Shown: piece by piece, positions 2,883 to 7,943 of the stretch
How the letters are laid out: each line of letters begins with the position of its first letter
Position numbering within the stretch: position 1 is the stretch's first letter
Translations under genes and position numbers: made by a program
Notes under the pieces: generated by a model
Database searches by the model: none
Told to the model about the DNA's origin: nothing
The model's input: the letters and a program-made list of their open reading frames with translations, nothing else
Source: a virus
Lineage: Duplodnaviria > Heunggongvirae > Uroviricota > Caudoviricetes
DNA: 40,222 nucleotides
IMG/VR virus record: IMGVR_UViG_2778261638_000008
Direction: 5' to 3' (one strand)

Positions 2883-4078
2883 AACTCCACCGTTATAACG
2901 ATATTTTCCGGGGTACAGGACGCAGATTCGTTGTATCTGATATCAATGTTTGATGACGACAAAGCCCCCGGGGATTTCCCAATCGTCAGTTCCTGAATAT
3001 CGTAATAGCGTACATTCCCGCCACTCACCACGCCAAGATTCGCCGGTGAGTAAATGCGACTTAAAAGGACCGAATCACCAATCATCAGACTATTGATATA
3101 GTCGGAAATAGCCTGCTGGATCTGCTGCCCTATCTGTGAGGTATAACCCGTAAAAACTTTTAATTTAATCCGGGCATAAACAGGCACATCACTGGAACGC
3201 GAGAATTTGATTACATGGGGATTGCCGTATTTATCCGGAACCGTAACGGATGTTGTACCGTGAGTGGCTGTCCCCTGGCCTTTATTTCCTCTGATAGCCT
3301 GAGCAATATCCGTCACATCACCGCCATCCACAATTACAGCAACAGAGTGTGGCGGTAACCCGTTACCGTCCTCCGAACCAGTATCGTTTTCATAGAGTTT
3401 GTGGCGGGTTACACCGGTAACATTATAAACAGCACCATCCAGTGCTTCAAATGGGGTTATTGATGGCAACGCAACACTTTGCGACTGGCGGATACGTAAC
3501 TCCGCATCAGTTTCTGCTGGAGTGCCTACAGTAGCTGCAGCAGGATTGGTTACCGAAACCCAGCCACGGGTTGGCGTATTAATTTCAGTGATAGTTCCAG
3601 CCAGCGCCGCCACTGCACCACTGACGGAACATTTTGCGGTCACCATCACTGTACCATCCACGCCGACCACCACTGAAGCAGGCAAACGCCATATCACATT
3701 ATTACTGTCTTTCACGCTGCCATTAATGATGGTTGTTCCGGCAGTTCCTGTAAGAAGCAAATCAACCGTAGAATTCGTCGCGCCTTTACGTGAAATACCA
3801 TTTATTTTCACGTTACTGGTCAGTGCAGCCCCATAGCCGGTTGCCGGTGAAAAACAGTTGTAGACAGTTATCGCCATATTATTGGCATCATGAATCGCCA
3901 GCGCCATCAGAGCCACCATCTGGCCGTCTTTGCTGTCCGGTTCCAGATAAGCGTCACTGCCGTAAATCTGCTGGAAATAGCTTGCCAGGGTATCGAGTAT
4001 CGTCTGGTAATCAGGCGCGCTGATCCCCTCAGCGGTTACCGTTGCCGATAAGCCGAGTGTATCCAAATTGAGGGCCAT
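2879..4078 (-). CDS. Baseplate J-like protein
   Basis: 399 aa; size and position (between gpW-like and gpI-like genes) match baseplate wedge J family. Confidence 0.6.
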   Translation of the reverse strand: MALNLDTLGLSATVTAEGISAPDYQTILDTLASYFQQIYGSDAYLEPDSKDGQMVALMALAIHDANNMAITVYNCFSPATGYGAALTSNVKINGISRKGATNSTVDLLLTGTAGTTIINGSVKDSNNVIWRLPASVVVGVDGTVMVTAKCSVSGAVAALAGTITEINTPTRGWVSVTNPAAATVGTPAETDAELRIRQSQSVALPSITPFEALDGAVYNVTGVTRHKLYENDTGSEDGNGLPPHSVAVIVDGGDVTDIAQAIRGNKGQGTATHGTTSVTVPDKYGNPHVIKFSRSSDVPVYARIKLKVFTGYTSQIGQQIQQAISDYINSLMIGDSVLLSRIYSPANLGVVSGGNVRYYDIQELTIGKSPGALSSSNIDIRYNESASCTPENIVITVEL

Positions 4079-4432
4079 TTATGCCTCGCTGGTTACTGTC
4101 GTTGTTCCGTAGATAGTGTCGATCTCAGCGAAGAACTGGACGCGGCGCGTCGTCGTGTTCACTGTCGTATTGAAAGAGAGGATTGATTTAACGCCCCGCG
4201 TTTCGAGGATGCGCTTACGGATCGCCAGGTTGTAGGTTTCCTGCTTCTGCTTACCGAGTACGGACTGGATCCACGGAGTCCCCTCGGTGGTGTCGAGAAA
4301 CCATTGCCCATACCACAATTCGAATCGCGTTTTTACCGCCTGCGCCACGGCCTCCGGTGAGTTAATCAGCCAGGTGTCATCACCGCTGCCAAAGGTGTAA
4401 TCGCCATCGGCGTCTTCACGTCTGTATCGCAT
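4079..4432 (-). CDS. Baseplate protein (gpW / gp25-like)
   Basis: 117 aa; overlapping start/stop with flanking baseplate genes. Confidence 0.45.
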   Translation of the reverse strand: MRYRREDADGDYTFGSGDDTWLINSPEAVAQAVKTRFELWYGQWFLDTTEGTPWIQSVLGKQKQETYNLAIRKRILETRGVKSILSFNTTVNTTTRRVQFFAEIDTIYGTTTVTSEA

Positions 4433-5184
4433 CAGTTTACTCCGTCGGTATTGCCTCCACCGCGCTGAACACCACCATGAGTGTGTGTATCATCGATTGG
4501 CTTGCCGTTAGCCTTCACGCTCCCCAAAAACTCAACAGCCCCAGTGATTTTTGAAGCCACACCAGAAACCACAGACCCCACCATGCCCCCCATCCAGGTT
4601 AACAGGCCATGAATGGTTACTTTCTCAGAAAAATCAGCCAGAGGGGCAACCACATCAAGACCACCCGGAGCGACAATTTTAATTTTCTGAGTGGAAGGGT
4701 TGAGCTCAAAGAACGTACTTCCGTCGTCGCTACGGAGCTGCGCGGCCCCCGTGCTTATTCCGCTGATTTTCTGCGTCTGCGACTGTGGCCCTACGATACA
4801 GAATGCATCTGATAAATCATGCACCCGGTCGTCGACAGGCTCCTGCACTCCGCCGTTCTGCCACCAGAAATCGATGCAGCGATCGGCGAAAATTACCAGA
4901 CATTCATCACCAGTTTTAACCGGGAACGTTAGCGTGCAGCCTCCGCCGCGCGGAAATACCACCGGCACATCCACCAGCAGCGGGTAATTTTTGGTAATGC
5001 GGTTCCCGTCGTTATCAGTTTCAACCGAACGGACAGCAGGCTGCACAACCGCCGTAACCGCGTCAGGGTCGAATGACTGGACGATGCCAGGCAAAGCAAC
5101 ACGGATCTGGTTCTTTGTTGTGTCCCGCTCTGATTTGAATGTTTCGGCAAGGTCGCCGCTGCGGGTCTGGTCAGATACTGCCAT
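4432..5184 (-). CDS. Baseplate central spike / hub protein (gpV / Gp138-N-like)
   Basis: 250 aa, glycine-rich C terminus; good SD (GGAG) before ATG at 5184; position in baseplate block. Confidence 0.55.
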   Translation of the reverse strand: MAVSDQTRSGDLAETFKSERDTTKNQIRVALPGIVQSFDPDAVTAVVQPAVRSVETDNDGNRITKNYPLLVDVPVVFPRGGGCTLTFPVKTGDECLVIFADRCIDFWWQNGGVQEPVDDRVHDLSDAFCIVGPQSQTQKISGISTGAAQLRSDDGSTFFELNPSTQKIKIVAPGGLDVVAPLADFSEKVTIHGLLTWMGGMVGSVVSGVASKITGAVEFLGSVKANGKPIDDTHTHGGVQRGGGNTDGVN

Positions 5185-5202
5185 TTAGTAGGCTCCAGAA
5201 AG

Positions 5203-5226
5203 CAAAAAACCCGCCGGGTGGCGGGT
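5203..5226 (-). terminator. Rho-independent terminator ending the inserted 5245-6395 cassette
   Basis: On minus strand: 7-bp perfect GC-rich stem (ACCCGCC/GGCGGGU) with 4-nt loop followed by UUUUUU; lies between stop of 126-aa gene (5245) and start of spike gene (5184). Confidence 0.75.
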
Positions 5227-5244
5227 CTGTAAATAAACTTTTTG

Positions 5245-5625
5245 CTAAGCTACTTGGGATTTCATTTCTGCTATTTTGTCCAACATCTTGTTCACCACTG
5301 CAATAGATGAACTTGCTTCAGTTTGCAAAATAGTCTCTGTTAGATCGTAGTCCGCGCGCTTACGCTTCATTTTTTGCTGTTTGAGAACTGCCCCCAACTG
5401 GATAAGAGACATTAACTCATAAGGTTCATCCTTCCGCCTTGCATCCGAAATAAGATATTGAACAACTCCATCATGTGTTGTCGGCGGGCAACACGTCAAA
5501 AGGCCACATGTTTCATGGTAGAACGCATAGTATGCCCGTGAAATAGCACTTCTGAAACCAGACTCAATACCAGTGTCTAAACATGCACGGGATGCGCCAA
5601 TGAACTCTTTTCCTTGGATACTCAT
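5245..5625 (-). CDS. Hypothetical 126-aa protein with HEPN-like motifs (second gene of inserted cassette)
   Basis: ATG overlaps stop of upstream gene (ATGA). AT-rich. Segments RAYYAFYHE, TTHDGVVQYL and RKRADYD resemble the helix 1, conserved His and C-terminal R-x-x-x-Y signatures of HEPN domains (from memory, unverified). Confidence 0.6.
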   Translation of the reverse strand: MSIQGKEFIGASRACLDTGIESGFRSAISRAYYAFYHETCGLLTCCPPTTHDGVVQYLISDARRKDEPYELMSLIQLGAVLKQQKMKRKRADYDLTETILQTEASSSIAVVNKMLDKIAEMKSQVA

Positions 5626-6395
5626 ATCGTGAAGTGAATCTCCTGCCGATTACGCCCGCGGAACCAGGCCGTCACATTCTTTCCAGCGAAGATCTCATTC
5701 ATTGCAATTTCAGTAGCAACGTCAATATCCATATCGGAAAGCATATCGGCATCCTCACATAAAACATCACAAACTATGCCAGCATCCCCATCCGGGCTTG
5801 TGACATAGTCATGAGAAATAGCTAAAACACCATAATTCTTAGCGACATTAGTAATTGTTCTGGAAAGAAGATTTATCTCATTCGTGCTTAAATCAGTCAC
5901 ACTTATGAATGTATCTAATGCCCGTTTTTTTTCCATGATATCTGACTCCATGCTTTCTCGCTCGCTCTCACTTCCGATCATAGACAGAGCTTTTCGAGCA
6001 AAAAAGAGTGATAGTTCACCATCGCCGTCAGCATAGGCTGCATTCCTTGCTCGTATGCACAAAGCAAGGCTGGTAATTTCCCGAGCTAACCTCACAGCCT
6101 CTTCTCGGTACAATTCATACTGTCCAGTATGACTGAGGTAAGAAAGATAATTTCTAGCTACTGTTTCGTCACGGTATGCAACTGCCTCCTGAAAAAAACC
6201 GACAGCTTCAACATGTTGATGCGCAGCTCCATAAGCCAGAGCCAACACCATCAACTTAACTGGCTCATCAGGGATTTTGCCTGCTTCAGAGACAACTCGC
6301 TTTAGCGTAAAAGCATCCAGTTGCTGCCCTTCATCAATACGTGAAGTAAGCATCTCAAGCGTTTCATTCAGTTTGCTATACAGTGCAAGTGACAT
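5622..6395 (-). CDS. Hypothetical 257-aa protein (first gene of inserted cassette), acidic C-terminal half
   Basis: SD GGAGG 7 nt upstream of ATG at 6395; AT-rich; translationally coupled to the downstream 126-aa gene; no recognisable catalytic motif. Confidence 0.65.
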   Translation of the reverse strand: MSLALYSKLNETLEMLTSRIDEGQQLDAFTLKRVVSEAGKIPDEPVKLMVLALAYGAAHQHVEAVGFFQEAVAYRDETVARNYLSYLSHTGQYELYREEAVRLAREITSLALCIRARNAAYADGDGELSLFFARKALSMIGSESERESMESDIMEKKRALDTFISVTDLSTNEINLLSRTITNVAKNYGVLAISHDYVTSPDGDAGIVCDVLCEDADMLSDMDIDVATEIAMNEIFAGKNVTAWFRGRNRQEIHFTI

Positions 6396-6536
6396 TAATC
6401 ATCCTCCATAACGGAGGAATTTATCATCGGAAGGCATCATCAACAACCTGTTGTTTTATTCATTAATCCATATTCTAGACTAATGCTTTGCTCTTTTCTA
6501 AGGAGAGAAAGGAGAACTGGTTAAAATTTCTTACTC

Positions 6537-6878
6537 TCACCCAGCCACTTTTTTACAAGGGAAAGACCCGATGATTTTCGGCGCGTCCATGCTGTTCTGC
6601 AGCAGCTGGACGTTCAGGAAACGCTTTTCGGTACCAGGGCGACGAATGTATTCAAAGCCGTAGTTGTTACCGTCTTTGGCAGGCATAAGCCCCATGTCTA
6701 CTTTCAAACCATTGGTACCCAGCTCGGTGATTTTTTGAGAGGTAACTCTTTCACCGTTGATTGTCGATAACTCGCCCTGGTTTGCAACCATAGTGTAGCC
6801 ACCGCATTTAACCGTAAAGCCATCCGCCCACGCGCTGCACGCAGAAAAGACAGCTAACAGAAAAATAATACCCCTCAT
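6537..6878 (-). CDS. Small secreted/periplasmic protein (113 aa) with Sec-type signal peptide
   Basis: N terminus MRGIIFLLAVFSACSAWA = basic n-region, hydrophobic core, AWA cleavage motif; sits directly after baseplate hub gene. Confidence 0.55.
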   Translation of the reverse strand: MRGIIFLLAVFSACSAWADGFTVKCGGYTMVANQGELSTINGERVTSQKITELGTNGLKVDMGLMPAKDGNNYGFEYIRRPGTEKRFLNVQLLQNSMDAPKIIGSFPCKKVAG

Positions 6879-6881
6879 TGC

Positions 6882-7943
6882 TCATCCCCTTTGCTGCGCT
6901 GAGGACGAAAGTAAATCCGCCGCACCACGCGCTTCGCACATCATATCCATGTACCACGCCTGGCCCCTTGTGTCGCCAGTGTACATAATCCCGCGCACAA
7001 TATAAACGCCATCCGTTGCGATGCTGGCAGGCTGCGCCGTGGTGCCGCTGAGCGTGATATTTCCGTCCGTGTTCTGGTCGGTGATCTGCCCACCGGCCAT
7101 CGCGATATCGTTGCTCGACAGTGCGGTGCGATATACGGAAGCCTGATCAAGCTGAATGAGCCCGTTAACCCGGATGTTCGGATTAATCAGCGCGCGGACG
7201 TTTACGCCGTTACCGATAGTCTGCTGCGGCATGCCAATAAGCCCGGTAGCGCTGTTGAGCACAATCGCTTCGTGAACATATTCGTTATTCGCCACCATCT
7301 GGCGCTGACCGTCCACGAATTGCCATGTTGCGCCACATTGCCCGGCTACGTTATCCATAAGATGCCGCGTCATGCCAAAGAGTACCCGCCCCCGGGGGAA
7401 TACAGTAGCAGGCATTTCAGGCGTCAGACCTTCAGTCGCGCCTTTGGCCTCGAAGTCTTTCATCAGCGCGCGATTCACGTCTGCGACCGTATAACCGGCC
7501 GCCAGCGTCTGCGAAGTTATGCTGGTGGCAAAAGCCAGATCCGTATCGGCTGCCTGAATCAGAACGTAAGAATCAATGGGGCTGTCTTTTCCTGTTACCG
7601 AGTAACGAATTTCGCCGCTGAAAATCATCCCATAGTTGCGGCCATCACCCTGGCCCACATCCGCCGCGTCGACTTCCCGCACGGTCCCGACGTCGCTGGC
7701 CGATACCTCCGGCGCGATACCGTCGTAACCCGCAATCAGACGCACTTTCAAAAACTCCTGCCCGGTGATTCGGTTCACAGTATCTGCCGAGAGGTTATAA
7801 ATTTTGATAGTCCCTATCCGGGACGCACTGCTGATGTTGAACCAGTCGATCGTAAAGGTGACTTTAAAATCACTTAGCTCAATTCCCTGACCGTTCCCGT
7901 CCACAAGCTGCAGCTCGAAATGTCTCATCCAGTTCTGTGACAT
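6882..7943 (-). CDS. Phage baseplate hub / tail protein
   Basis: 353 aa, in tail block downstream of tape measure; position-based. Confidence 0.5.
   Translation of the reverse strand: MSQNWMRHFELQLVDGNGQGIELSDFKVTFTIDWFNISSASRIGTIKIYNLSADTVNRITGQEFLKVRLIAGYDGIAPEVSASDVGTVREVDAADVGQGDGRNYGMIFSGEIRYSVTGKDSPIDSYVLIQAADTDLAFATSITSQTLAAGYTVADVNRALMKDFEAKGATEGLTPEMPATVFPRGRVLFGMTRHLMDNVAGQCGATWQFVDGQRQMVANNEYVHEAIVLNSATGLIGMPQQTIGNGVNVRALINPNIRVNGLIQLDQASVYRTALSSNDIAMAGGQITDQNTDGNITLSGTTAQPASIATDGVYIVRGIMYTGDTRGQAWYMDMMCEARGAADLLSSSAQQRG

Follow-up and report, generated by a model that had tools for sequence, protein, structure and literature searches.

A mobile two-gene cassette with an AF0298-like HEPN-fold protein and an acidic partner in the tail module of a temperate phage

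Between the genes for the baseplate hub and the spike of a contractile-tailed phage, two further genes are found in the viral record IMGVR_UViG_2778261638_000008 (IMG/VR), and the question is whether they belong to the tail, how they came to stand there and what they may do. The record, a stretch of 40,222 nucleotides (nt) called "the window" in the following, is a near-complete temperate phage with an integrase, a CI-like repressor and a contractile-tail module. The original prediction, made from the sequence alone, regarded the genes for proteins of 257 and 126 amino acids (aa) as an undescribed defence or toxin-antitoxin (TA) module with a HEPN-like small protein, inserted into the baseplate region as a moron. 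In bacterial immunity and TA systems, HEPN nucleases recur as effectors. New here is an AF0298-type HEPN protein that is locked to a new partner, kept under purifying selection and found as a promoter-to-terminator unit in at least seven positions.

Exchange of cargo between the hub and spike genes

In blastn comparisons, homology of the window to relatives with other cargo or with a divergent version of the pair ended at position 5226 and restarted at 6539 to 6549, which indicates that the block initially delimited as 5201 to 6536 is almost exactly the variable block (Table 1). Relatives with hub and spike genes 90% to 96% identical to those of the window contained different genes at the exact position of the cassette: one open reading frame (ORF) of 266 aa in Yersinia phage YP3, one of 170 aa in vB_EcoM-689R2, and ORFs of 138 and 77 aa in SEN34. 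No Pfam or PADLOC family could be assigned to these alternative cargos. The tail module, thought at first to be normally uninterrupted, thus has a variable cargo slot between hub and spike across the whole lineage. Cassette and flanks differ in their histories. For L017 and L004 (loci are numbered with L; both from Escherichia coli PK8241), the cassette was 99% to 100% identical but the hub merely 47%, and for L038 the hub was 96% identical but the partner protein 42%.

The pair was found in at least seven different positions among prophages of enterobacteria and Aeromonas. In addition to the hub-spike slot of SEN34-like myoviruses (the window and its close relatives), these were a position between the genes for the tape measure protein (TMP) and a DNA-circulation protein in a Mu-like tail of Aeromonas (L016), between Mor and the endolysin in a Mu-like prophage (L048), before gpM in a lambda-like tail (L047), between Rz1/LysC and the terminase (L036/37), beside tail-fibre assembly genes in Xenorhabdus (L013), and directly downstream of a CI-like repressor (helix-turn-helix plus S24) on the same strand (L039-45). 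The position behind CI is a classical site of lysogen-expressed exclusion genes. A search of GenBank phage DNA gave no match to the cassette even at distant sensitivity, and at the protein level the GenBank phages yielded a single Klebsiella prophage, in which the HEPN gene is split. A scan of genome contigs with narrow peptide patterns returned one locus.

This distribution bears on the possibility that the phage lineage uses both proteins as conserved components of its baseplate or tail assembly. The pair does sit between the hub and spike genes and occupies that slot in many related prophages, but relatives with nearly the same hub and spike genes bear unrelated genes there, and Mu-like and lambda-like phages have the same pair too, which elsewhere stands beside CI or between the genes for lysis and the terminase. 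The cassette is present in merely 2 of 5,426 complete E. coli genomes, and the fold of the small protein is that of a HEPN domain and not a structural one. A component conserved in all relatives, which would have spoken for a tail function, was not found since the cargo differs among them, and a structural role can be regarded as effectively refuted.

The cassette was therefore classified, from synteny and composition, as an inserted, exchangeable accessory unit (moron) and not as a baseplate component, as had been proposed. It shows presence or absence between conserved genes, an atypical composition, a conserved promoter motif (candidate) and a terminator. The block is low in G+C, with 42.5% to 42.9% versus 54% to 55% in the spike and hub genes, which ranks in the lowest 1.8% of all 1.3-kb windows; the "one third" estimated by eye applies to the 141-nt spacer upstream of the 257-aa gene only (34.8%). 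Morons of tail operons reportedly include gp15 of HK97, and the concept is said to go back to Juhala and Hendrix. The cassette resembles them in being an additional unit of transcription that has a candidate promoter and a terminator, atypical G+C content, and presence or absence between conserved late genes. Its cargo is a two-gene HEPN module, in contrast to the single membrane superinfection-exclusion protein of the gp15 type.

Table 1. Positions of the cassette, its predicted expression signals and further features in the window
Feature	Position	Strand	Remark
Exchangeable cargo block, hub-spike slot	5227..6538	-	Borders from blastn homology and G+C content
Gene for 257-aa acidic partner	5622..6395	-	Putative restrainer and/or sensor
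Gene for 126-aa HEPN-fold protein	5245..5625	-	AF0298-like HEPN-T subtype; putative RNase effector or toxin
Candidate cassette promoter	6418..6462	-	Conserved A-rich stretch 6462-6451, −35-like TTGTTG, extended −10
Hairpin CCUCC-GUUAU-GGAGG	6403..6417	-	Shine-Dalgarno sequence for the 257-aa gene (6407-6403) forms the 3' arm
Intrinsic terminator AGACCCGCC-ACCC-GGCGGGTTT plus T-run	5197..5228	-	Just upstream of the spike ribosome-binding site
Baseplate hub gene	7943..6882		phrog_196, weak PF22759
Small secreted-protein gene	6537..6878	-	113 aa, N-terminal signal-peptide-like MRGIIFLLAVFSACSAWADG; phrog_3443
Spike gene	5184..4432		PF18352 and Apex motif
Second patch of lowest G+C content	35400..37260		40% to 42% G+C
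DUF6338 gene	36102..36722	-	206 aa, apparent transmembrane helices

Upstream of the cassette are the gene for the small secreted protein and then the hub gene; downstream follow the spike gene, a 117-aa gene with counterparts labelled "Sheath_initiator" in related loci, and the gene for baseplate J. In comparison with the PK8241-type prophage (L017/L004), an identity of 92% was unbroken from position 3500 to 6612 and about 66% thereafter, and this drop, inside the 3' end of the secreted-protein gene, looks in the alignment like a recombination breakpoint just outside the cassette. The 113-aa secreted protein, to which phrog_3443 assigns no function, separates the hub from the cargo slot in nearly all relatives, with an identity among them between 29% and 96% that is often discordant with that of the hub. 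The gene for this protein and the alternative cargo gene overlap in 689R2. The protein may be a factor directed to the periplasm, or its gene may be a second accessory gene of older date.

The HEPN-fold protein and its partner

The AlphaFold2 (AF2) model of the 126-aa protein is a helical bundle with a pLDDT value (predicted local distance difference test) of 92 and has the four-helix up-and-down arrangement of the HEPN fold. The family profile matched 9xbd ("HEPN domain-containing protein") at an E value of 1.4e-7 and 2hsb at 1.7e-3, the identity of the protein to 2hsb being 16%, and it reached PF05168/UPF0332-annotated proteins at E values between 5e-24 and 1e-4. HEPN-MNT and RnlA/LsoA systems were among the matches of the fold search. 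Used as a single sequence, the protein had no Pfam match at E ≤ 1 and missed the gathering threshold of PF05168. The motifs RAYYAFYHE, TTHDGVVQYL and RKRADYD, noticed before as HEPN-like, were recovered by profile, alignment and fold search as conserved motifs of a real HEPN subfamily. Judged by fold and conserved residues, it truly has the HEPN fold and belongs to the AF0298-like subtype.

The canonical R-x4-6-H motif is not present; the sequence is R88-K-R-A-D-Y93 instead, and the tyrosine at the position of the catalytic histidine is invariant in an alignment of 38 sequences and in 11 divergent ones. In the 11 highly divergent members, E21, R25, R30, Y32, Y33, H37, H51, E67, R88, D92 and Y93 are all invariant, and H51, in the motif THDG, aligns with THRG of AF0298. 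AF0298-like HEPN-T domains lost the histidine of the motif and kept the arginine; a second conserved histidine, located in an insert that separates helices 2 and 3, was suggested to provide an alternative active site (Anantharaman et al. 2013, PMC3710099). The 126-aa protein displays the same combination. The candidate R and H residues mentioned previously need to be specified on this basis: with the canonical motif missing, the residues to be considered are R88 together with H51 and H37, in line with the AF0298-like subtype. Entries 9xbd and 9xbc are the nearest solved relatives in sequence; 9xbc has F in place of the Y of 9xbd where the invariant Y93 aligns, which suggests that the depositors regard this tyrosine as functionally critical. 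Further features, next to the low identity to 2hsb, distinguish the protein from AF0298-like HEPN-T proteins (UPF0332/PF05168; 2hsb, 9xbd/9xbc): it remains below the Pfam reporting threshold, it is paired with a 257-aa protein whereas those stand alone or beside a small nucleotidyltransferase, and it is carried by enterobacterial prophages.

The model of the 257-aa partner (pLDDT of 92) consists of an array of helices resembling tetratricopeptide repeats (TPR; about residues 1 to 137), a long helix (143 to 167) and a C-terminal domain, which between 171 and 248 has the order α-β-β-α-β. The partner is acidic, with 41 D+E versus 25 K+R, especially in the C-terminal domain. An exhaustive profile search of 1.84 billion representative sequences yielded about 90 to 100 full-length relatives of 245 to 290 aa, none of them fused to another protein; the other matches were generic TPR proteins. 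Pfam, NCBIfam and PADLOC contained no family for the partner, to which no motif had been assigned in the first inspection, and the only library matches of the two cassette proteins were PHROG families of unassigned function. A DNA-binding or autoregulatory domain of the helix-turn-helix (HTH), ribbon-helix-helix (RHH) or AbrB type was not found by Pfam or fold search. A nucleotidyltransferase, as in classical HEPN-MNT pairs, was considered and ruled out by structure model and fold search.

The two genes overlap by ATGA at 5622 to 5625, which couples translation of the 126-aa gene to that of the upstream 257-aa gene; the proposed coupling is supported by the same 4-nt junction in 12 of 17 diverse cassettes and a 1-nt overlap, TAATG, in two more. 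In every locus long enough for judgement (about 40, many of them redundant), the HEPN gene was located immediately downstream of a homolog of the 257-aa gene, down to 26% to 32% identity, so that the pair forms, by this gene order, an obligate unit. Values of ω of 0.08 and 0.11 for the two genes, in the comparison with L019, point to two functional genes under purifying selection. The partner is less conserved than the HEPN protein in 99% of the pairs (mean identity of 35% versus 49%). The identities of the two proteins correlate with r = 0.965 (153 pairs), a co-divergence that is compatible with a complex yet expected from linkage alone.

Some loci at the margin of the family deserve mention. 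The HEPN gene of L051 (Klebsiella phage ST405-OXA48phi1.3, 3280-4396) is annotated as two fragments, and the large gene of L055 (3097-4014) was called as 106 aa, with one frame fitting the family profile over almost its whole length; both are decayed or mis-called copies of the cassette. The most distant paired HEPN member, L052 (206-1382, profile E value of 4.7e-10), overlaps an upstream gene for 267 aa that the hidden Markov model of the 257-aa family did not detect, and its neighbour is OsmC, with no phage gene seen on the short contig. Pairing may thus extend past recognisable homology and past prophages. The neighbours of the nearest HEPN outgroups were small unannotated genes and gave no informative partner.

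The 266-aa protein of YP3 (L001, 2413-3213) aligns with the partner from end to end at about 25% identity. It occupies the same hub-spike slot, where a HEPN gene is absent and the terminator hairpin differs. A parallel exists in Tha of Staphylococcus aureus prophages, a HEPN defence protein expressed in lysogeny from the cI operon and provided with a separate inhibitor, Ith (PMC11087260). Tha is a single protein of 301 aa that combines an uncharacterised N-terminal region with a HEPN domain of the canonical type (RNSIMH); Ith is small and encoded antisense, and a solo Ith in phage Φ7206 is an evasion factor (PMC11087260). By this analogy, the YP3 protein could serve in evasion or represent a neutraliser in orphan form.

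The layout of the cassette, adjacent co-transcribed genes with translational coupling and the putative neutraliser upstream, is that of a type II TA system. One interpretation is an addiction system, in which a HEPN toxin and a labile 257-aa antitoxin would stabilise the prophage or the cassette by post-segregational killing, with no dedicated antiphage role. Strict co-inheritance of the coupled genes, the faster-evolving acidic partner in the upstream position and a selfish mobility across many phage positions would agree with this, as would the established toxicity of HEPN proteins in the HEPN-MNT and RnlA/LsoA systems, both recovered as fold matches. The partner itself argues in the other direction, being large and well folded instead of small and partly disordered, and devoid of a recognisable DNA-binding or autoregulatory domain, and the site behind CI and the all-prophage contexts suit a cargo of benefit to the lysogen equally well. 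A role in addiction only is accordingly rated as quite improbable.

Expression signals of the cassette

The candidate promoter is composed of TTGTTG (6446-6441), a 17-nt spacer and TAAATT (6423-6418), the latter being part of an extended −10 element, TGATAAATT, at 6426 to 6418 on the minus strand. In eight aligned cassettes (alignment A3), CAGGTTGT and TG-TA--TT are invariant and their spacing is fixed, including L032 with its cassette in a different genomic context. Extended −10 promoters show this pattern. A divergent clade has TTGACG-17/18-CACAAT/TAGAAT instead.

The strong Shine-Dalgarno (SD) sequence noted upstream of the 257-aa gene was confirmed as GGAGG, 7 nt ahead of the ATG. The hairpin predicted to sequester it folds in the window (−10.9 kcal/mol for a 41-nt stretch, z = −2.8), but L019 and L032 do not have it, and in L028, L030 and L031 the folding does not exceed that of shuffled sequences. 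A conserved regulator was thus not supported. The hairpin begins right after the −10 element, so that transcripts from the cassette's own promoter would not contain its 5' arm, and only read-through transcripts from upstream would be able to form it.

The terminator stem (5228-5207) and its T-run have a folding energy of −18.4 kcal/mol and a z value of −4.3, none of the shuffled sequences folded equally well, and the terminator scanner also reported this site. An identical hairpin and spike ribosome-binding site (RBS) follow the unrelated cargo in 689R2 and SEN34, which indicates that the terminator is a fixed right-hand border of the slot in this lineage; the strong intrinsic terminator postulated for the cassette is therefore there, but it is common to the slot and not the cassette's own. 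In nearly all other contexts, too, a terminator closes the cassette, and its arms show compensatory changes. A strong terminator upstream of the spike RBS was conserved whatever the cargo, in the window, L002, L003, L005 and L038, and expression of the spike and the distal baseplate genes presumably needs antitermination or read-through. The hairpin may also serve as a recombination anchor for exchange of cargo.

A rival to the preferred reading, a benefit to the lysogen, is a benefit to the phage during infection or induction. In the latter case, the HEPN protein would be an adaptor that binds RNA or protein and is not catalytic, and together with a TPR-like scaffold it could provide counter-defence when host HEPN or TA systems are met, or regulate late genes post-transcriptionally. 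The classical catalytic histidine is indeed missing, and a non-catalytic mode of action is noted for some HEPN domains (Anantharaman et al. 2013, PMC3710099). Most insertions lie in operons of late or structural genes, and read-through there would lead to expression of the pair in lytic growth, and the solo relative in YP3 recalls the Ith evasion factor of Φ7206. On the other side, the invariant polar set E21, R25, R30, H37, H51, E67, R88, D92 and Y93 is typical of an active site, and the cassette's own promoter (candidate) and terminator and the placement in CI operons favour expression in lysogeny. A phage-benefit factor is rated as rather unlikely. Should the HEPN protein turn out to be non-catalytic, the cassette would represent a new phage-borne regulatory or counter-defence pair.

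A possible defence function of the lysogen

The tentatively preferred reading, for which the case is a little short of even, is that of a TA-like abortive-infection or superinfection-defence module expressed in the lysogen. The accessory operon would move between temperate phages by recombination. It would be transcribed in the lysogen from its own extended −10 promoter or, in some phages, from the CI operon, with the terminator insulating this transcription. The HEPN protein would be an RNase-type effector or toxin that uses R88 and the alternative H51 (and H37, Y93) instead of the classical R-x4-6-H site. The co-translated, faster-evolving acidic partner with its TPR-like and α/β parts would bind and restrain the HEPN protein like an antitoxin and may double as a sensor that frees it, to the benefit of the infected lysogen. 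RNase activity, neutralisation by the partner, expression in lysogeny and the defence phenotype are our inferences. The anatomy, a HEPN effector gene behind that of an acidic, co-translated and more rapidly evolving partner, agrees with a moron that encodes a TA-like pair.

Related systems share this logic and differ in their parts. In HEPN-MNT (HepT-MntA, type VII TA), the partner is a minimal nucleotidyltransferase that AMPylates a tyrosine of the HEPN protein, and the cassette has no such partner. RnlA-RnlB and LsoA-LsoB of E. coli have large multidomain toxins encoded upstream of a small antitoxin; the cassette reverses these sizes, with a minimal HEPN protein and a large partner in the upstream gene. 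With Tha/Ith, compared by layout since no kinship in sequence is expected, it has in common a prophage-borne HEPN effector, a separate protein partner and an orphan partner in some phages, and the cassettes of L039-L045 sit behind CI as Tha does behind cI. All three are thus analogous in logic but different in the partner, the HEPN subtype and the gene sizes. System DS-28 of DefensePredictor, validated in E. coli and composed of a 163-aa HEPN protein and a 252-aa protein, was compared as well and is unrelated (BLASTP E value of 0.94, hhalign probability of 0.2%).

Several observations weigh against a defence function. The proteins of the window had no match in PADLOC-DB v2.0.0 at E ≤ 1, and divergent members had marginal ones (E values of 0.003 to 0.009). 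The RefSeq accessions of the cassette were not found in the supplements of the DefensePredictor validated set, as far as these were covered, or in the papers searched. Every context is a prophage and none a classical defence island, so that there is no guilt by association with defence genes already known. The canonical R-x4-6-H motif is absent, and catalysis by AF0298-like HEPNs is a published prediction. A partner twice the size of the putative toxin and with no DNA-binding domain would be unusual for a type II antitoxin, and the solo relative in YP3 means that the partner family may also work alone. Finally, of the promoter claimed before, the sequence elements are present and conserved in eight cassettes, but it fits the sigma-70 consensus at 7 of 12 positions, the promoter scanner remained silent, and promoter-like sites are no commoner in this region than in shuffled sequences.

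A broader version would make the pair a hitherto unrecognised family of mobile immunity cassettes of prophages, in which a fast-evolving TPR-like sensor or antitoxin controls a minimal, non-canonical HEPN RNase with the alternative R/H site that was predicted for AF0298-like proteins, the preference for tail modules is functional, and orphan partners of the YP3 type serve in evasion. For instance, a superinfecting phage could provide the trigger with one of its tail or baseplate proteins, and late read-through transcripts would carry the SD hairpin while those from the own promoter would not, which would prevent autoimmunity at induction. This version is doubtful. If true, it would provide a first functional handle on the large, uncharacterised clade of AF0298-like HEPNs. 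To our knowledge, no activity has been demonstrated for HEPNs of the AF0298/UPF0332 type that lack the classical catalytic histidine.

The designation as "undescribed" holds, because the module is not contained in Pfam, NCBIfam or PADLOC and the public annotation of its genes is merely "hypothetical". Should the cassette be an anti-phage or addiction module, it would represent a new two-component architecture with a TPR-like/α-β protein in place of the nucleotidyltransferase, offer a tractable E. coli model of the alternative HEPN active site, and mark the hub-spike junction of SEN34-like myoviruses as a hotspot of cargo for mining.

The second patch of lowest G+C content inside the phage (Table 1) contains an opposite-strand gene for a DUF6338 protein, wedged between the genes for a family A DNA polymerase and an SNF2 helicase; the phage also encodes a primase-polymerase with a VapE-like domain. 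A PADLOC search with the DUF6338 protein returned no match. This patch is probably another moron.

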